64,000 nucleotides of DNA from an uncultured Gammaproteobacteria bacterium (lineage in GTDB: Bacteria > Patescibacteriota > Microgenomatia > UBA8517): the NCBI GenBank assembly GCA_964600575.1, contig CAZRJH010000001.1, positions 28,651 to 92,650 of the forward strand, written 5' to 3'. Below, in pieces: positions 10,265-21,451 of this stretch; positions within the stretch are counted from its first letter, which is position 1; each line of letters starts with the position of its first letter. The notes under the pieces were generated by a model. That model worked only from the letters and a program-made list of their open reading frames with translations. It did no database searches and was not told the origin of the DNA. The position numbers were made by a program, and so were the translations under genes.

Positions 10265-10336
10265 GGACGACTAGCTCAGTGGTAGAGCGTTCGATTCACA
10301 TTCGAAAGGTCGTTGGTCCGATCCCAACGTCGTCCA
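10265..10336 (+). tRNA. tRNA-Val (anticodon CAC)
   Basis: Manual cloverleaf: acceptor GGACGAC/GTCGTCC, D arm GCTC-AGTGGTA-GAGC, anticodon stem TTCGA/TCGAA with loop TTCACAT (anticodon CAC), T arm GTTGG-TCCGATC-CCAAC, discriminator A. CCA is not encoded. Confidence 0.8.
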
Positions 10337-10380: not shown

Positions 10381-13300
10381 GTGTTTTTCCAAAAACTTTT
10401 TTTCAAGGTATTAAGTTTCCGCAATCTGGCCATAATGGCCGTATTTCTTTTCCTTATTACAGGCGGATATTTTCTGTTAGGAAAAAAAGCCCCTAAAACC
10501 GACGCGGGATATCAATCTCCGCAAATATTTATTTACGGAGGTGATAATAGTTTTTCGGCAGGCGGTTTAATTTCTTTAGCTTCAACAGACGAGCCCGCCG
10601 TTCAGATTGGTGGCTATAACATTTCGGGTAATGCAACGGTGGAAGTCTATAAGGCCAACCCGGATATGCTTTTGGACTACCTAACACACGATAAAGACGG
10701 TAAGCAGACAAAAACAAAGCCCGATGTTTCAAAACTCGAATTTGTAGGCACCACATCTCATTCAATAAATACCAACTCATACGAAGGTTCAAAAGTTAGC
10801 CTTCCTTTGGCTGAGAGCGGAGTCTGGTATCTAAAAGTTAAAATCGGCAATGTAAACGCCGACGCCTTTGTTCTACGAAGCGGATATGGGATTTTGGCTA
10901 AAGAAGGGGATAACGAATTTATTTTTTGGGGCCAGGACTTTAAAACTAAGAGGAGTATAAATGCCGGAAGTTTAAGCGTCCTAAATATGCAGGATACAAA
11001 AAAGAGTCTTTCCCAGACTAATTTTGATTCCGAAGGATTGGCAAAAGCTCCGATTACCGAAGAAGCTGATATAGCTTTTGCCCAAATTAACGACCAAATT
11101 GCAATAGTGCCTCTAAATCTCAAGTATCTAAACACGCCCTCGTATAAGTCTTATCTACAAAAAGCTCAAAATACAAATTATTTTGTGTTTACAGATAGAC
11201 CTTTGTATAAACCGGGCGACAAAGTTTATTTTAAAGCAATACTTCGAAACGACGACGATGCCAGGTATACAATCCCTTCGGGTAGTGCAAAAGTAAAGAT
11301 TTCTAGCGGATACGGCCCAGAAGAAATTAAATATGAAAAAACCTATCCTATTTCTTCCGAGGGCACGGTAGTTGGTGAGTATCAATTATCTGCCGATGCA
11401 AAAGTGGGTGGATACAGTCTGGAGATAAGCACAGGCGGGTCTAACGAAAATATTAGCTGGTCGGAGTCTCATTGGTGGAACGGATCGGTTTACTTTGATG
11501 TTGAATATTTCCAGAAACCGCAATATTTTATAGAAGTAACTTCTCCCAAAACCGAGTTGATTGCAGGGGATAAATCTACTTTTAAAATTCAGGCGAGTTA
11601 TTTTTCCGGGCAGCCTTTGGCAGGACAAAAAGTAAAATATAGAGTAGCTGCAGGCGATTATTACGATTATCAATATTACTCAGATATTAATTATCTAAGA
11701 TCTAGTCTCTCAAACGACTACAAATATTCTTATTATGGTTCCCATACTGTTTTGGAGGGTGTAACCGAACTTGATAAAAACGGTCAAAAAGAAATTACGT
11801 TCGATACAAAGATGGATTTCAATAATGGAAGAAGCCAGGTTTTTGCCATAGAGGCAACACTTGACGATAACTCCCAGACTCCCTCTTTCTCCAGACAAAA
11901 TGTTTTGGTTTATGCAGGCCAATACGGAATTTACAGATCGGACTATTCTTATGGCGGCAAAGTAAATACCGATCTCTCCATTCCTTTGCAACTTTACGCG
12001 TACGAGCCTGATGCAAATATCGCTGGTGTCCAACTAACAGCAAAAGTACACTGGGAAACATGGGAAAGTTATAACGATCCTAATCAAAAGTATCCCCAGT
12101 ACAAAAAAGTAGAACAAGACCTGTCGGAAATAAAAGGTACAACGGACTCAAAGGGTAATGTAAAGTTAAACTTTAAACCCCAAAAAGTAGGTTTTTACAC
12201 ATTTAAGATTCAAGGTACAGACGAAAAGGGTAATACTATTGGTAATACATTTTATGCATATGTCAGCGACCAAGATCAACCTGCATATACACCCCAAGGT
12301 GGAAATGAGTTAACAGTTAGTACCGATCGTGAACAATATAGTCCTGGCGATACAGTAAAACTTTCCATCTACTCCAAAACTTCGGACAGAGATGTGTTTT
12401 TAGCGATGGAGAGAGGGAGAGTTAATAGGTTTCAGATTGTTCATCTAAACGGAAACAAAGGCAGTATAGATCTGCCAATTTTAGACACGGATATTCCTAA
12501 TATGTACGCCAAAGTTTCCGCATTTTCTTCGAATGCACTCGACGGTAGCTCTGTAAATCTAAAAGTATCCACTCTAAGTAAGCGTGTTGTTGTGGGGCTT
12601 AAATTTGATAGTAAAAAATACGCTCCGGGAGATACGGTTAACGTTCAAGTTACAACAAAGGATGGATTTGGAAATCCTGTTTCTTCCGATGTTGCTCTTT
12701 GGGCCGTGGATAAGGCCATTTTTGAACTATCAGACTCAAAGTTGGGTAATATATTTAATACTTTTTGGAATGAAAGAGGTGACACCACCCAAGAGGATCA
12801 TTCATTAGAAGGAATTGTGGCATATAGCGCAGAAGGCGGCGGATGCTTCCTGTCCGGCACAAAGATTTTGATGTCAGACGGCAAAGAAAAGAATATCGAA
12901 GACGTAAAAGTCGGTGACTACGTATTAACCTATACCTCTGATTCCTCTAAGAAATTGGTCAAAGCTAAAGTTTTAGCAACTCAAAAGGCGGTTGACCCGG
13001 GTTATTTGATCATTAACGGTAATCTAAAAGTAACTCCCGATCATATAATTATGGCCAATGGAGTTTGGAGAGAAGCAGGAAGCGTGCAATTTGGCGACGA
13101 GTTGTTGTCTTCAAACGGCGATAAAGTAAAAGTTTATTCAATTGAATGGCAAAGGGGCAAAGTAGATGTTTACAATTTAACTGTAGACAAGTATCACACA
13201 TATTTTGCCAACGGACTTTATGTGCACAATCAAAAAGGGGATTCCAGAAGCACATTTAAAGACACTGCATATTGGAATCCCAGCGTTAAAACAAACTCGT

Positions 13301-15510
13301 CGGGTTTGGCAACTGTTTCGTTTAAACTCCCGGACAATCTTACAACTTGGACCGTAGCGGCCGTTGCAGATACGGCAGATACCAAAGTCGGTCAAACCAC
13401 CGAAGAAATTATTGTAACCAAAGATGTTATTGTAAGACCTATTCTTCCAAACATAATAAGGTTGGGGGACACATTAGTTGTTTCTGCTTTGGTCCAAAAC
13501 TCAACCGACTCCGACAAAAACTTCGATGTAGATCTTAAGTTTGATTCAGGAGACGTCACTACAACTTCGTTCAAAAACGTTAAAATAGCAACTAACTCAA
13601 TAGAAAGGTTTGCTTGGGAAATAAAGCCGCAAAAAGAAAACCCTAACGCAAAATTGGAAGTTACCGCACAAGTATCCGATAACGAAAAAATATCAGACGG
13701 TGTAATTTCAGAAATTCCCGTTATTCCTTTCGGATATTTTGTCACGACTTCGGAAGCCGGTGACGGCAACAAGGATTACAACATTGCTATTCCACAGAAT
13801 GTTTCTAAAGAAAAGTCAAAGTTAACACTTTCTCTTTCCCCAACAGTTTTGGGAACACTACCGACAGCGATGAAATATTTGGTTAACTATCCTTACGGTT
13901 GTACGGAACAAATCACAAGCCGATTTGTTCCGGCACTTATAGCCAAGGCAAACCCGACACTTTTTGCCGATGCGCTTAAAGACAAAGATATCGACGAGAT
14001 AATCCAAAAAGGTATAGCAAGATTAGTTGCCACTCAAAATGGGGACGGCGGTTGGACATGGTGGTTTACAGGGACATCCGATCCTTATATTAGCTCCTAT
14101 GTTGCGGAATATTTAGTTTATGCCCAAAAGCTAGGTTATAAAGTAGATAAAAATTCGTTGGACAGAGCCAGGGGTTATTTGGGATCTAAGTCCTATTACG
14201 ACTACAAACAGCAAAAAGAAATTGCATATACTGATGACGAAAAAGCAATTAAAAATTACGGCCTTGTTATTTTAGGAAACACAAAAGACATACACACTGT
14301 AAATGTTGAAAGTCTTTCTTTGGACACGCTTGCTTTAAATGTAATAACCAACTCTTCACTTGGTAATAAAAATCCCGCATCAAACGGTTTAAACAGACTA
14401 ACTTCTATGGCGCAAACCCAGGGGGACAGTGTTTACTGGGAAGCAGGTAGCAAACTTCACTTTGGATCAAAAGACGCTTCTACGGCATTTGCAATAAGAG
14501 CAATAATTGCTTCTAACGGGGATCGGGAATTGGCTGTAAAAGCCTCTAAATATTTAATCAGAAACAGAAAGTTTGAATATTGGTCCAACACTTTTGCAAC
14601 AGCACAAGTTGTAAGGGCGGTGACTGATCTATCCAAAACAGGCGGTGAATCTAACCCAAACTTCTTATACTCTGTAACACTTGATGACAAAGAGCTTGCA
14701 AATGGCCAAGTCCAAAATATAAAAGATAAGTTGCAAGATATAGATATTGATACCTCTAAAATTAACTCTAAAGGATCTAATCTAAAAGTTACCATCGAAG
14801 GCCAAGGTCAGTTATATTCCGCCTTTGTCTCTAAACTTTTCTACACCGATACAAAAGCAGACGCTGTTAAAAATGGACTTTCTATAAAACGGGAATATAT
14901 TAACGAAAAAGGAGATCAGTATCAGTTGGCGGTTGGTGATAGCGTTATCGTTAAGATAACTGCGACAGGGCCCAAAGCACCCGAAAATTATGCCGTAATC
15001 ACCGACGAACTACCTTCGGGAATGGTTCCGGTTAACCCCATGTTCAAAAACGAGCAATATGGCGAAAACCCGCTTCCGGCTTATTTTTCAAACTCTTATG
15101 TGACGGGAATGGATGTTACACAAAATGGTGCTGTCTTGTCTTTGTATCTATTGGAACCGGGAACACACACTTTTACATATAGAGCCCGAGTAGTTAGTGC
15201 CGGTAAGTTTACGGTACCCCCTGCAGAAATAAGTTTGATGTATGATCCCGCAGTAAACGCCAGAACAGAGGTGCAAACATTAACCATAGCAGAAGAATCA
15301 AAACTTATCCCGACGGCATTTATTCAGGTTATATTTAAGAAATATTTCTGGAACATAATACTTGGAGTGTTTGGTGTATCCGCACTCATTGCGATTATTG
15401 TAAAAATGAAGGGTTCGGGGTTTAAGTTGTCAGAGCTTAAATCAAAACTTTTAAAAATTTTCAAGAAAAATAAAGATATTACGCCACCGATCACTCCTGA
15501 CGTACAATGA
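10381..15510 (+). CDS. membrane-anchored alpha-2-macroglobulin family thioester protein (1709 aa) with an embedded Hint/mini-intein domain in the bait region
   Basis: Repeated MG-domain starts 'FTDRPLYKPGDKVYFKAIL', 'VSTDREQYSPGDTVKLSIYS', 'KFDSKKYAPGDTVNVQV'. A2M_N_2 hallmark 'DVALWAVDKAIFELSD'. Post-bait 'RSTFKDTAYWNPS...LPDNLTTWTVAAVA'. Thioester motif 'NYPYGCTEQITSRFVPAL' (Cys at nt 13900-13902), then 'LVATQNGDGGWTWW'. Hydrophobic N-terminal (res ~17-35) and C-terminal ('FWNIILGVFGVSALIAIIV') anchors. Confidence 0.85.
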   Translation: MFFQKLFFKVLSFRNLAIMAVFLFLITGGYFLLGKKAPKTDAGYQSPQIFIYGGDNSFSAGGLISLASTDEPAVQIGGYNISGNATVEVYKANPDMLLDYLTHDKDGKQTKTKPDVSKLEFVGTTSHSINTNSYEGSKVSLPLAESGVWYLKVKIGNVNADAFVLRSGYGILAKEGDNEFIFWGQDFKTKRSINAGSLSVLNMQDTKKSLSQTNFDSEGLAKAPITEEADIAFAQINDQIAIVPLNLKYLNTPSYKSYLQKAQNTNYFVFTDRPLYKPGDKVYFKAILRNDDDARYTIPSGSAKVKISSGYGPEEIKYEKTYPISSEGTVVGEYQLSADAKVGGYSLEISTGGSNENISWSESHWWNGSVYFDVEYFQKPQYFIEVTSPKTELIAGDKSTFKIQASYFSGQPLAGQKVKYRVAAGDYYDYQYYSDINYLRSSLSNDYKYSYYGSHTVLEGVTELDKNGQKEITFDTKMDFNNGRSQVFAIEATLDDNSQTPSFSRQNVLVYAGQYGIYRSDYSYGGKVNTDLSIPLQLYAYEPDANIAGVQLTAKVHWETWESYNDPNQKYPQYKKVEQDLSEIKGTTDSKGNVKLNFKPQKVGFYTFKIQGTDEKGNTIGNTFYAYVSDQDQPAYTPQGGNELTVSTDREQYSPGDTVKLSIYSKTSDRDVFLAMERGRVNRFQIVHLNGNKGSIDLPILDTDIPNMYAKVSAFSSNALDGSSVNLKVSTLSKRVVVGLKFDSKKYAPGDTVNVQVTTKDGFGNPVSSDVALWAVDKAIFELSDSKLGNIFNTFWNERGDTTQEDHSLEGIVAYSAEGGGCFLSGTKILMSDGKEKNIEDVKVGDYVLTYTSDSSKKLVKAKVLATQKAVDPGYLIINGNLKVTPDHIIMANGVWREAGSVQFGDELLSSNGDKVKVYSIEWQRGKVDVYNLTVDKYHTYFANGLYVHNQKGDSRSTFKDTAYWNPSVKTNSSGLATVSFKLPDNLTTWTVAAVADTADTKVGQTTEEIIVTKDVIVRPILPNIIRLGDTLVVSALVQNSTDSDKNFDVDLKFDSGDVTTTSFKNVKIATNSIERFAWEIKPQKENPNAKLEVTAQVSDNEKISDGVISEIPVIPFGYFVTTSEAGDGNKDYNIAIPQNVSKEKSKLTLSLSPTVLGTLPTAMKYLVNYPYGCTEQITSRFVPALIAKANPTLFADALKDKDIDEIIQKGIARLVATQNGDGGWTWWFTGTSDPYISSYVAEYLVYAQKLGYKVDKNSLDRARGYLGSKSYYDYKQQKEIAYTDDEKAIKNYGLVILGNTKDIHTVNVESLSLDTLALNVITNSSLGNKNPASNGLNRLTSMAQTQGDSVYWEAGSKLHFGSKDASTAFAIRAIIASNGDRELAVKASKYLIRNRKFEYWSNTFATAQVVRAVTDLSKTGGESNPNFLYSVTLDDKELANGQVQNIKDKLQDIDIDTSKINSKGSNLKVTIEGQGQLYSAFVSKLFYTDTKADAVKNGLSIKREYINEKGDQYQLAVGDSVIVKITATGPKAPENYAVITDELPSGMVPVNPMFKNEQYGENPLPAYFSNSYVTGMDVTQNGAVLSLYLLEPGTHTFTYRARVVSAGKFTVPPAEISLMYDPAVNARTEVQTLTIAEESKLIPTAFIQVIFKKYFWNIILGVFGVSALIAIIVKMKGSGFKLSELKSKLLKIFKKNKDITPPITPDVQ
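12844..13230 (+). other. Hint (intein-type) domain, 129 aa (res 822-950), no homing-endonuclease insert
   Basis: Block A 'CFLSGTKILMSDGKEKNIEDVKVGDYVLT', block B 'TPDHIIMANGVWREAGSVQFGDELL', blocks F/G 'VDVYNLTVDKYHTYFANGLYVHN'. The first residue is Cys; the last two are His-Asn; the following residue is Gln. Confidence 0.8.
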
Positions 15511-19129: not shown

Positions 19130-21451
19130 TCAAATATTATAGGTCTTTGAAGTGTTTCTATAGTTTAAGTCGTGGACTTTGAATGTTTTTGGCAAAAAGC
19201 CGTTCAGCTCTACCTCTTTGTAATAGGTTTTCTCTGACTTAGAAATATAGGCGACTATAAAAGTTGTATTTTGAGAGTTTGGAATAAGGCCTACAGAAAA
19301 CGAGGACTTTGGCTCGTTTATTACAAGTATTCCGTTTTCGTCTTTTTTGATCTTGCCGTTTGGGCTTTTTATCCAGAAATTGCTGGAACCTATCAAAACT
19401 AGCATAGACTCGGGCTCTTTTGGCGCTTTGCTCATATTTGAGGCAACTCTTAATAAGCCTGCATGCCCGTTAAGAAACTCCAGTATTTTTGCTTGCCCTT
19501 CGCCGGAGGAAACTAAGCCTCCGTGGTTTTGGTTGATTGTGACATTGTATGTATTGTCTATTTTGGAGCTAGACAACAAAACTGTCCCGTCACCTTGCAT
19601 GGTAGAACTTGGGTTTCCGTAAGGTTTGCCGTCTAGCCAATCTCCGCCAGACACTTCTTTAGCTGTGGGGTTTTTAACATTTAAACCGCTTGGAGTTTTA
19701 AAACCTGTTCCGGAGAGGGTCATAAAATCAACACCCCAAAAATCCTCGGCAATGTTTAAAGGCAAAAGGTTATTTTTAGCATCCATTGAAGAAACAGGCT
19801 TAAAACCTGTCTTGTTTTTAAGGTAATCAAAGGTGGGTAATACACTTTGAATTGACGGAATTTGGTTGCGAATGACAACCCTGTCAGAAGTGTTTTGAGT
19901 GTCACAATGTTTTGAATATAGCGTCAAAAAAACTTTTATTAGAAAGTTATCCTCCATAATCTCTCCACCACTCCAAGGCGGATATGCATGAACAGCTCCT
20001 TTTAATGGTGAACCTGCGGCAACAATTTTCTCTGTCTTGTTTCCTTGGTCGAATGTTAAAAAGTCCAGAGCGACAACTCCGCCTAGACTATGACCCACAA
20101 TGTTTACTTTTTCCTCCGAAGAAGTCTGTGTACCTATTAGACTTTGAAGTTGGGAGGCGGATTGTATTATCGGCTGACGAAAATCGTAGTAAAAAGGCAA
20201 AACTTGCCAACCGCCTGCGGCGAGGGATTCTATTAGCGGTTCATAAACCGACGCTGCATAAGGAGCAAGAGACCAGTTGTTGGGATTTGGATCCGGCTGA
20301 CAACTCAAAAAAGCGTTTCTGTTCCACCCGGAGCCAAACCCCGGCACAACAACAACTTTGTTTGTAATTGGGGCGGGTGTTGGCGTTGGAGTTGGCGTAG
20401 GTATTGGTGTTGATGTTGGTGTGGGGGTGGGTGTAGGAGTGTTGTCAACAAAAGAAGTTTTCCAAACATGGTTTGTGTAATTACCATTTGCAACACCTCC
20501 AATTAAAAACAGATCGTCTCCGACATTAACCAATTGACCACAACAGTTGGATTCCGGCAGACTTGGCCCGTTCGACCAAGATGTAAGCGTGCCGTCTGGG
20601 TTAATATCCGCGTAGTAAACATTGGTAGAGTCTGAGCCTGCAATTACCACCCTGTTTTGCACTCTTGTAATTCCAAATCGCCATATCCCTGTAGGCAGTG
20701 AGGACAAGCTTTCCCACGGCCCAATTGAGCCGTCCGGATTAATTAGGGCACGTATAACCTGGTTGGAATATCCTGTTGGTGTGTACCCACCAAAGACTAC
20801 CAAATAACCGTTTATAACCAACATTCCTTGGCCTTCTGTTTTTTGTGGCAGATTGCCTGCTATTCGCCATGCCCCAATTGTTCCATCGGGATTTATGTCT
20901 GATACATATATCTCACTTATTGCTACATTGGGGTTATTGGCTTGAGAAGGGATTGTGCTTCCTCCGGCGTGGAATAATTGGTTGTTGAATGATGCCGACG
21001 ATGACAAAGCAAGCTTTTGTGGAAGTGGTGTAGTGTTTGACCACCCACCAAGTGAATTGTTACTGTTTTTTGTTGCAAACGATACAGTATCCACATAAGA
21101 AATCACACCGTCAATTGAGTCTAAGAAACCTCCTAGAATATATACATCGTCGTTGCTACTCGTTGTTGTATGCCATATAAGTCTCAACGGACTGTTGGAT
21201 ATGGTCGTCCAAGGTGTGATATTGCCGCCAGAATCAATCGTATTGAGTACATCAGAGCGGCTACCTCCAAGACTGCTGGATCCACCAAAAACAAATATGC
21301 CATCTAAGTATGTGGCTGCAGTGTTGCTGGCAATTGAATACGGTAAATCTATTGCACTGGTCCAGGAGGTTAAACTAGCCTCAACAGTTGTAGGGTGAGC
21401 CAAACAAAGAAGTAAAAACAAGAATAAAAAAAGTTTTCTAAACTTGCTCAT
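19130..21451 (-). CDS. secreted multidomain protein: Kelch-type beta-propeller + Pro/Thr linker + LCAT/PGAP1-like alpha/beta-hydrolase (lipase/acyltransferase) + C-terminal domain
   Basis: Signal peptide. Kelch-like repeats 'YLDGIFVFGG', 'VYILGGF', 'YLVVFGGYTPTGY', 'LFLIGGVANGNY'. Linker 'TPTPTPTPTSTPIPTPTPTPTPAP'. Nucleophile elbow 'IVGHSLGG', acid 'GDGTV', His 'NHGGL' in LCAT-like order. Confidence 0.6.
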   Translation of the reverse strand: MSKFRKLFLFLFLLLCLAHPTTVEASLTSWTSAIDLPYSIASNTAATYLDGIFVFGGSSSLGGSRSDVLNTIDSGGNITPWTTISNSPLRLIWHTTTSSNDDVYILGGFLDSIDGVISYVDTVSFATKNSNNSLGGWSNTTPLPQKLALSSSASFNNQLFHAGGSTIPSQANNPNVAISEIYVSDINPDGTIGAWRIAGNLPQKTEGQGMLVINGYLVVFGGYTPTGYSNQVIRALINPDGSIGPWESLSSLPTGIWRFGITRVQNRVVIAGSDSTNVYYADINPDGTLTSWSNGPSLPESNCCGQLVNVGDDLFLIGGVANGNYTNHVWKTSFVDNTPTPTPTPTSTPIPTPTPTPTPAPITNKVVVVPGFGSGWNRNAFLSCQPDPNPNNWSLAPYAASVYEPLIESLAAGGWQVLPFYYDFRQPIIQSASQLQSLIGTQTSSEEKVNIVGHSLGGVVALDFLTFDQGNKTEKIVAAGSPLKGAVHAYPPWSGGEIMEDNFLIKVFLTLYSKHCDTQNTSDRVVIRNQIPSIQSVLPTFDYLKNKTGFKPVSSMDAKNNLLPLNIAEDFWGVDFMTLSGTGFKTPSGLNVKNPTAKEVSGGDWLDGKPYGNPSSTMQGDGTVLLSSSKIDNTYNVTINQNHGGLVSSGEGQAKILEFLNGHAGLLRVASNMSKAPKEPESMLVLIGSSNFWIKSPNGKIKKDENGILVINEPKSSFSVGLIPNSQNTTFIVAYISKSEKTYYKEVELNGFLPKTFKVHDLNYRNTSKTYNI

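Follow-up and report, generated by a model that had tools for sequence, protein, structure and literature searches.

What does a Hint domain do inside an alpha-2-macroglobulin (A2M), and can it rejoin its flanks when the residue that follows it is a glutamine? This question is raised by a 64,000-nucleotide stretch (the window) of contig CAZRJH010000001.1, from an uncultured bacterium placed by GTDB in the Patescibacteriota (Microgenomatia; UBA8517). An uninterrupted open reading frame (ORF) on the plus strand, 10381 to 15510, has 1709 codons from its GTG start and encodes a bacterial A2M of 1709 amino acids, as judged from the ORF list, the translation and Pfam. Within it lies a Hint domain of 129 amino acids, Cys822 to Asn950 (12844 to 13230, plus strand), that has no endonuclease insert. 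Nucleotides 13219 to 13245 read TAT GTG CAC AAT CAA AAA GGG GAT TCC in the frame of the gene, that is, YVHN/QKGDS, where the slash marks the end of the domain. A sequence-only reading of this DNA had described the same His-Asn end followed by Gln, and its coordinates for Cys822, Asn950 and the CAA codon at 13231 to 13233 are exact when the window is re-read from the GTG start. We consider it about an even chance that the domain is an active type A bacterial intein-like (BIL) domain whose productive route would be self-excision with amine-mediated re-ligation of the bait, cleavage being a side reaction.

The domain is recognized as a Hint by several models. Pfam PT-HINT matches residues 837 to 950 (E = 4.9e-13; 49.9 bits versus a cutoff of 27.7), Pfam Hom_end_hint matches residues 822 to 850, and the NCBIfam model TIGR01443 (intein_Cterm) matches residues 929 to 950 (27.5 bits versus a cutoff of 15.6); the match to the Pfam Hint model (PF01079) is below cutoff. 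Note that TIGR01443 is matched over profile positions 1 to 23 of 24, and that its last position, which falls on Gln951, is unmatched. An AlphaFold2 model of residues 812 to 962 has a mean pLDDT of 89 and a pTM of 0.83 for the Hint, and predicts disorder (low pLDDT) before Cys1 and after Asn950, Lys952 included. Residue 1 is Cys822 (TGC, 12844 to 12846, plus strand), the predicted nucleophile of an N-S acyl shift. Block B is represented by T885-P-D-H888 (TxxH; 13033 to 13044, plus strand), and block G by His949-Asn950 (13225 to 13230, plus strand; Asn950 is AAT, 13228 to 13230), the predicted site of succinimide formation and C-terminal cleavage. In an alignment of 116 homologues, Cys822 and H888 are 100% conserved and T885 is 99% conserved. 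A family hidden Markov model run over the 64-kb window found no Hint copy besides the Cys822-Asn950 domain, and no homing endonuclease was met in the window alongside that search.

Is the Gln951 codon genuine? A contig from a separate assembly, with 98.45% DNA identity (29 mismatches in 1876 nucleotides), has the same CAC AAT CAA AAA GGG GAT and differs just upstream of the junction by a synonymous GTG to GTT change. This match, together with the +1 residues found across the family (below), rules out an assembly or sequencing error. In the 98%-identical metagenome-assembled genome (MAG) assembly CAZQCI01, the contig breaks inside the Hint-coding region, with one piece (L005) ending at window position 12865 and the other (L001) starting at 13014. 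These breaks could reflect strain-level presence or absence of the Hint, or repeated Hint sequences in the community.

The same junction recurs across a large family. We compared residues 790 to 1000 with 1.84 billion cluster representatives, examined the best 150 matches and located the Hint in every retrieved protein. Most of these matches are proteins of about 1700 amino acids that align continuously over query residues 2 to 211, in other words A2Ms with a Hint at the same site, and this one orthologous site is occupied in more than 130 clusters at 50% identity. Our junction table covers 138 C-terminal and 135 N-terminal junctions of A2Ms. On the N-terminal side, residue 1 is Cys and residue -1 is Gly in 135 of 135 homologues, and residue -2 is Gly in 128 of 135. 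The last two Hint residues are His-Asn in 138 of 138. The +1 residue is Gln in 52 proteins, Asp in 47, Glu in 16, Gly in 14, Ser in 3, Asn in 2, Lys in 2, Leu in 1 and Ala in 1, so that Gln, Asp, Glu or Gly accounts for 129 of 138 and Cys, Ser or Thr for only 3, all of them Ser. Lys follows at +2 in 135 of 138 and Gly at +3 in 124 of 138, matching Gln951-Lys952-Gly953 of the window protein (CAA AAA GGG, 13231 to 13239, plus strand). Two of the three homologues without Lys at +2 have it at +1 and the third at +5; a Lys is therefore found within two residues of His-Asn in 137 of 138 Hint-bearing proteins.

Full-length genomic copies agree with these counts (HN/QKG in L002 and L004, HN/DKG in L003). 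An independent metagenome scan seeded with the C-flank only recovered 26 further Hint-bearing loci, in which the +1 residue is Gln, Asp, Ala or Glu, never Cys, Ser or Thr (0 of 26), and in which Lys stands at +2 in 25. A non-nucleophilic +1 residue is the rule of the family, and the nucleophile that class 1 transesterification requires is thus absent. One metagenomic locus (L039, contig Ga0180732_1004262) has a variant C-flank, HN/QCGGKGEGDGCPVRSNF, with Cys at +2 and a second Cys nearby in place of x-K-G. In deeply divergent A2M subfamilies this site is again occupied by the Hint, with the identity of about 0.44 unchanged (L004, 3978 to 10529; P0160; P0154, P0157, P0165 and P0168); these proteins have 1835 to 2199 amino acids and a C-flank about 18 to 28% identical to that of the main clade, and four have ALF or ALY for AYWNP. 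Outside the A2Ms, the closest relatives of this Hint occur in small proteins whose N-termini resemble those of type IV pilins (FTLIEI...) or which have membrane anchors (P0004 to P0006, P0015 to P0016, P0029, P0094, P0133 and P0167). They carry one to five Hints in direct tandem, joined solely by HN-K-(G)n/CF or HNKP/CL linkers, and Lys is at +1 in 36 of 52.

A canonical class 1 mini-intein whose +1 residue was misread, or a decayed and inactive Hint relic that stays in the loop, would be the simplest alternative to a BIL. The NCBIfam intein C-terminal model and Pfam intein models do match, and Ser occurs at +1 in three of the 138 homologues. We nevertheless regard this alternative as highly improbable, and as refuted for practical purposes: the same CAA occurs in the independent 98.5%-identical assembly, neither Cys, Ser nor Thr is found at +1 in 135 of 138 homologues or in any of the 26 metagenomic loci, and the insertion falls in a variable linker instead of a conserved active site. 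A decaying relic is ruled out by Cys1, the block B Thr and His, and the terminal His-Asn, which stay constant while the host flanks have diverged to 12 to 35% identity. Because the chemistries of both ends are invariant across such diverged hosts, the Hint is predicted to be active and both junctions are likely to matter.

Our comparisons support classifying residues 822 to 950 as BIL-like (type A) rather than as a canonical intein. The best PDB sequence match of the Hint is the BIL 2lwy (E = 3.7e-11), whereas the best named intein, Mtu RecA, gives 8.9e-5. Foldseek against the PDB places BUBL1 BIL2 on top (6Y75 and 6TMM; E = 1.5e-11, TM 0.81, 27 to 28% identity) and 2LWY at rank 3 (TM 0.78 to 0.85, 34% identity), both ahead of all inteins and Hedgehog domains, with a Foldseek probability of 1.00 to BIL2, CthBIL and many inteins. 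The domain therefore appears closer to BILs than to inteins or Hedgehog (Hog) domains, a closeness judged against solved structures and Pfam PT-HINT. It also combines the Hint fold, Cys1, TxxH, a terminal His-Asn and no +1 nucleophile with the lack of an endonuclease and a location in a variable region of a non-essential, predicted exported or surface protein.

The known type A comparator is the Clostridium thermocellum BIL (PDB 2LWY; Amitai 2003, Dassa 2004 and Aranko 2013, as cited in PMC4031507). With type A BILs, the window domain shares a Hint of about 130 amino acids without endonuclease, Cys1, TxxH, His-Asn, no Cys, Ser or Thr at +1, and a place in a variable region of an exported protein. 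It differs in its host, an A2M, in its site, the trigger loop of that host, and in its family-fixed flanks, GG/C...HN/x-K-G. Furthermore, BILs are described as scattered in their occurrence, whereas the Hint of this family occupies a single orthologous site, as inteins do. Class 1 mini-inteins (Ssp DnaB, Mtu RecA and gp41-1) have the fold, blocks A, B, F and G, a single orthologous site and presence or absence among close host relatives in common with it. We rejected a canonical class 1 intein on two grounds: the +1 residue, which is Gln951 here and Gln, Asp, Glu or Gly in most of the family, and the insertion site, which is no conserved active-site motif but a linker, Gly-rich and disordered, in a surface protein that is not essential. 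A Hedgehog or Hog-type Hint was rejected as well, given that the domain ends in His-Asn and is followed directly by an A2M MG domain, with no sterol-recognition or adduct-recruiting region. PT-HINT (PF07591) is the best Pfam model, and pretoxin Hints are autoproteolytic Hints in secreted or surface proteins. However, a pretoxin architecture does not fit either, for unlike in polymorphic toxins the Hint is followed by A2M MG, CUB, TED and MG10 (Pfam bMG10) domains and by no toxin domain.

Where in the A2M does this domain lie? With the Hint deleted, the flanks align to Escherichia coli ECAM/YfhM structures (E = 1.5e-15), and both the resulting junction (...SAEGGG/QKGDS...) and the N-side linker fall on the ECAM bait segment AALRFGGDGDELKRGG. 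By chain index, and taking the numbering of the published structure as equal, the junction lies on or adjoins ECAM Arg923-Leu942, 20 residues that are disordered in elastase-cleaved ECAM. In bacterial A2Ms the bait is largely disordered and lies within MG8, and its cleavage untethers it, drives a conformational change and exposes the thioester (PMC4498604). Since the junction aligns to the ECAM bait, whose cleavage is the trigger, the Hint occupies the trigger loop. In the window protein, the N-side bait linker EGIVAYSAEGGG comprises residues 810 to 821 (12808 to 12843, plus strand) and ends in Gly-Gly before Cys1; the C-side linker, QKGDSRST, comprises residues 951 to 958 (13231 to 13254, plus strand) and is followed by the conserved FKDTAYWNP. 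The insertion site is thus a variable Gly-rich linker, disordered in the model and devoid of any conserved functional motif of the host.

Several points of the sequence-only reading are borne out by these results: a Hint that ends in His-Asn with a non-nucleophilic +1 residue, its placement within the bait region, and the preference for a BIL-like domain over a canonical intein. The refuting condition that it had named, Cys, Ser or Thr at +1 in orthologues, does not hold. Our literature search, in which co-mentions of inteins and A2Ms were judged from title and abstract, found no A2M bait described with a Hint, an intein or a BIL. BILs are familiar, as are bacterial A2Ms; what we could not find described is a type A BIL with a constant GG/C...HN/x-K-G frame at one orthologous site of an A2M trigger loop.

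Close relatives that lack the Hint provide natural controls. The nearest relative of a Hint-less A2M from a Woesebacteria MAG (L007) is Hint-bearing (L002, 51.5% identity), followed by the window protein (48.6%). A second Hint-less A2M, from a Moraniibacteriota MAG (L006), pairs with the Hint-bearing P0061, and the two Hint-less proteins are nested among Hint-bearing sequences. Among metagenomic loci with at least 45% C-flank identity (n = 29), the Hint is present in 21 and absent from 8. At the insertion site, Hint-less relatives have a Gly-rich linker, AE[KG]GGGGG[DE]xR, of 20 to 24 residues. In the Hint-bearing family, an N-linker of 12 to 13 amino acids and a C-linker of 8 to 10 add up to a median of 21 (5 to 95% range, 20 to 24). 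Because this sum equals the length of a Hint-less bait, the predicted ligated product would have the natural Hint-less bait length.

The lysine that accompanies the Hint is missing from these relatives. In none of six Hint-less proteins (L006, L007, L022, L026, L028 and L040) is the Gly run followed by a Lys, whereas 137 of 138 proteins with the Hint have one; the unit gained or lost is therefore C...HN-x-K. The same six have a near-pure poly-Gly bait, AE[KG]GGGGGGG[DE]xR, just upstream of FKDTAYWN. Such a bait would be cut by few proteases other than Gly-Gly endopeptidases.

Which reactions are open to a Hint without a +1 nucleophile? Type A BILs, which have a C-terminal His-Asn and no such nucleophile, can splice, by a proposed route in which the amine freed by Asn cyclization attacks the N-terminal thioester, although cleavage products dominate over spliced product in the BILs characterized in vitro (PMC4031507, PMC7664689). 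Tetrahymena BIL2 forms a Gly-Lys isopeptide, in which a C-terminal carboxyl is joined to the epsilon-amine of a Lys, and needs no ATP for it (PMC8616854). Given these chemistries, three outcomes are open to the window domain: a peptide-bond splice, an isopeptide splice or scission. The sequence-only statement that nothing except N- or C-terminal cleavage is chemically available is therefore too narrow.

We propose the following route, each step of which is predicted from the residues present and from the chemistry of related domains. After export and folding, Cys822 would undergo an N-S acyl shift onto the Gly821 carbonyl to give a thioester. Asn950 would then cyclize and break the Asn950-Gln951 bond, with no branched intermediate able to form. 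The Hint would depart, and the Gly821 thioester would be captured by a nearby amine; Gly at -1 gives the least hindered thioester for aminolysis. That amine could be the newly freed alpha-amine of Gln951, by the route of type A BILs, or else the epsilon-amine of the near-invariant Lys952, by that of BUBL BIL2. A Gly-rich bait of about 21 residues would thereby be re-tethered, as found in Hint-less relatives. Hydrolysis in place of capture would yield a two-chain protein with a cut bait, which we regard as a side reaction and not as the purpose of the domain.

This route would account for the properties of the host. A thioester motif that is kept in most of the family (CxEQ, below), nested Hint-less relatives and equal linker lengths together suggest that the A2M can function whether or not it carries a Hint, and that its bait has to be tethered and of constant length. 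Such a bait is what would be expected if the Hint removed itself and the flanks rejoined. The Hint-less orthologues, with a bait of the length of the predicted ligated product, make self-removal at least as likely as scission of the bait, and the earlier preference for an autoproteolytic over a self-removing role is to that extent not upheld.

Several considerations weigh against self-excision with re-ligation. The predominance of cleavage over splicing in characterized BILs keeps a self-cutting bait alive. The equal linker length could instead reflect a constraint of the precursor fold, since the termini of a Hint lie side by side and the path of the bait would be the same either way. The roughly 80% retention of the Hint in close relatives, with a conservation at or above that of the best host domain, could mean a function beyond harmless self-removal. 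The part assigned to Lys952, a residue disordered in the model, is suggested by its conservation and by analogy to BIL2, and the reaction steps themselves are predictions.

A less likely possibility, close to the sequence-only reading, is that the BIL is a built-in trigger that severs the bait at one junction or at both and leaves it unjoined; self-processing would replace the attacking protease, convert the A2M to its activated form and expose the CxEQ thioester. The product would be a two-chain, doubly membrane-anchored molecule, or a protease-independent device for covalent tagging analogous to the conversion of C3 into C3b and C3a. Besides the dominance of cleavage in characterized BILs, this possibility gains from the position of the Hint, exactly where bait cleavage fires bacterial A2Ms. 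Complement C3 presumably offers a parallel, as we take its folded, releasable ANA/C3a domain to lie at the position equivalent to the Hint site. The Hint has been kept in 21 of 29 close metagenomic relatives and is conserved no less than the best host domain, with no endonuclease driving its spread; the poly-Gly bait of Hint-less relatives would be cleavable by few proteases; and both chains would stay at the membrane by way of the predicted hydrophobic anchors at the two ends of the protein. Yet constitutive cutting would discharge the thioester before a target is met, and CxEQ is nevertheless kept in 87% of the family. A single cleavage would suffice, but both junction chemistries are invariant. 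Nested Hint-less orthologues manage without the domain, linker lengths are held tightly at the Hint-less value, and no regulatory element for conditional firing was identified.

A further reading, which we hold to be rather improbable, makes the C...HN-x-K unit a working part of the trap and no mere tolerated parasite. The invariant Gly-Gly thioester would pass either to the epsilon-amine of the near-invariant Lys952, which would form an isopeptide "lariat" bait, or to an amine outside the protein; alternatively, it would be hydrolyzed on cue. In each case the BIL, in place of an attacking protease, would arm or fire the A2M. If true, the A2M would serve at the surface as a protease-independent means of covalent capture or attachment with two thioester chemistries, and BIL domains would have a clear physiological role.

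Could the acyl group instead be handed outward? The Gly821 thioester might be transferred to an external amine or hydroxyl of the cell wall, a lipid, a partner protein or a host surface, much as in Hedgehog cholesterolysis or the "ubiquitin dispensing" of BUBL proteins, and would then be a second covalent warhead of the A2M. With Tetrahymena thermophila BUBL1 BIL2, the top structural match, the window Hint shares an N-flank Gly-Gly, as at the C-terminus of the ubiquitin-like domains that BIL2 hands over, and a C-flank Lys available as acyl acceptor; Gly-Gly at -2/-1 and Lys at +2 are near-invariant in the family. The Hint relatives outside the A2Ms, too, belong to surface proteins that are pilin-like or membrane-anchored, and they often form tandem arrays. 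However, the window Hint is not flanked by ubiquitin-like domains, its host is bacterial and predicted to be extracytoplasmic, and a Lys nucleophile is here a conjecture. The poly-Gly bait of Hint-less relatives, taken as ancestral, also accounts for the Gly-Gly. A sterol-recognition or adduct-recruiting region is absent, the terminal His-Asn is a feature that Hog domains lack, and no partner was identified. We therefore think outward transfer quite unlikely.

How the Hint came to be shared by these A2Ms is less clear-cut. Its mean pairwise identity is 0.44, compared with 0.30 and 0.33 for the two flanks. Segment by segment, the MG segment just downstream comes closest, at 0.42, and the other host segments range from 0.24 to 0.33. 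Identities of the Hint and of the flanks are weakly correlated (Spearman 0.13), whereas host segments of equal length give 0.59 to 0.75. Among close relatives the Hint does diverge along with its host: small host clades share Hints at 0.55 to 0.58 identity, compared with 0.43 to others, and Hint identity plateaus at about 0.44 below a host identity of 0.40, down to host identities of 0.1 to 0.2. The plateau and the low correlation between host and Hint fit either a strong constraint floor or an ancient lateral spread between A2M genes. A recent foreign insertion was rejected, as there is no compositional signal (GC content of 0.390 in the Hint DNA and 0.395 in the rest of the gene).

Some twenty years after BIL domains became known, their physiological role is still largely a matter of conjecture. 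A2M-family proteins are the textbook case of activation by an external protease that cuts a bait, and the surface biology of Patescibacteria, or the candidate phyla radiation (CPR), is little known. Here, a BIL with intact catalytic residues lies exactly on the A2M bait in well over a hundred diverged proteins, with natural Hint-less controls in the same clade. The classification itself is ordinary; it is the context that makes in vivo BIL function directly testable and raises the possibility of a protease-independent A2M. Two questions are thereby opened to experiment: whether a type A BIL in its natural host joins its flanks or severs them, and by means of which amine, and whether an A2M-type thioester protein can be armed or fired without a protease. 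For protein engineering, this module of 129 amino acids, with Gly at -1 and x-K-G behind the Asn, could be of interest for ligation without the need for a Cys, Ser or Thr scar.

The host protein has the features of a thioester-containing (type I) bacterial A2M, judging from Pfam and the ECAM alignment: MG domains, a bait region, CxEQ in the TED and a C-terminal MG10. Its Pfam domains are MG2, A2M_BRD (644 to 783), A2M (962 to 1052), TED_complement and bMG10, with the Hint (822 to 950) between A2M_BRD and A2M. The predicted thioester motif is C1174-T-E-Q in the TED (13900 to 13911, plus strand), and CxEQ is present at the aligned site in 101 of 116 Hint-bearing homologues (87%); by this measure the host appears to be a functional thioester trap still. 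The other 15 may be thioester-less forms or cases of local misalignment. With ECAM/YfhM and SaA2M, the protein shares the MG-domain ring, a bait within an MG8-type domain, CxEQ, the TED and a C-terminal MG domain; those proteins rely on an external protease, and the window A2M has N- and C-terminal hydrophobic anchors and no lipobox. The predicted N-terminal signal or anchor segment spans residues 16 to 33 (10426 to 10479, plus strand), and the C-terminal hydrophobic segment, a predicted membrane anchor, residues 1656 to 1674 (15346 to 15402, plus strand). A hydrophobic 19-mer occurs within the first 60 amino acids in 96 of 116 homologues and within the last 90 in 96 of 116. From these segments we infer export and a membrane topology anchored at both ends. 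The GTG start looks more plausible than an alternative ATG at codon 19, because the latter would drop the positively charged residues that precede the hydrophobic segment. An exact-sequence look-up of the window A2M, with either start codon, found no record. Minus-strand ORFs that overlap the gene (13392 to 13772, 11710 to 12033, 10758 to 11135 and 14457 to 14795) have no Pfam match and were considered spurious.

The isoleucyl-tRNA synthetase of the window is 67 to 71% identical to named matches from Patescibacteria, Woesebacteria and Microgenomates, and the named A2M relatives come from MAGs of Magasanikbacteria, Moraniibacteriota, Woesebacteria, Daviesbacteria and the "Patescibacteria group". 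A few relatives have MAG labels of Nitrospiraceae, Gammaproteobacteria or Dehalococcoidia, which are probably binning noise; the Hint-bearing A2M family has been observed mainly in Patescibacteria/CPR genomes. The A2M gene has housekeeping genes as neighbours. Upstream of it are genes for FtsW, ParB and signal peptidase I and a tRNA gene (10265 to 10336, plus strand) that ends 45 nucleotides before the GTG start. Downstream, a Memo-like gene (Pfam PF01875; 15507 to 16379, plus strand) overlaps the A2M stop codon by 4 nucleotides. A Memo-like gene also lies directly downstream of the A2M in the Hint-bearing L002 (10871 to 11656) and in the Hint-less L006 (10420 to 11253) and L007 (10617 to 11366), and its product may be a functional partner of the A2M, taking the place that Pbp1C has beside proteobacterial A2Ms. 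Farther along the window, the minus strand from 19130 to 21451 encodes a 773-amino acid protein with an unusual pairing of Kelch repeats and an LCAT/PGAP1-like alpha/beta-hydrolase region.

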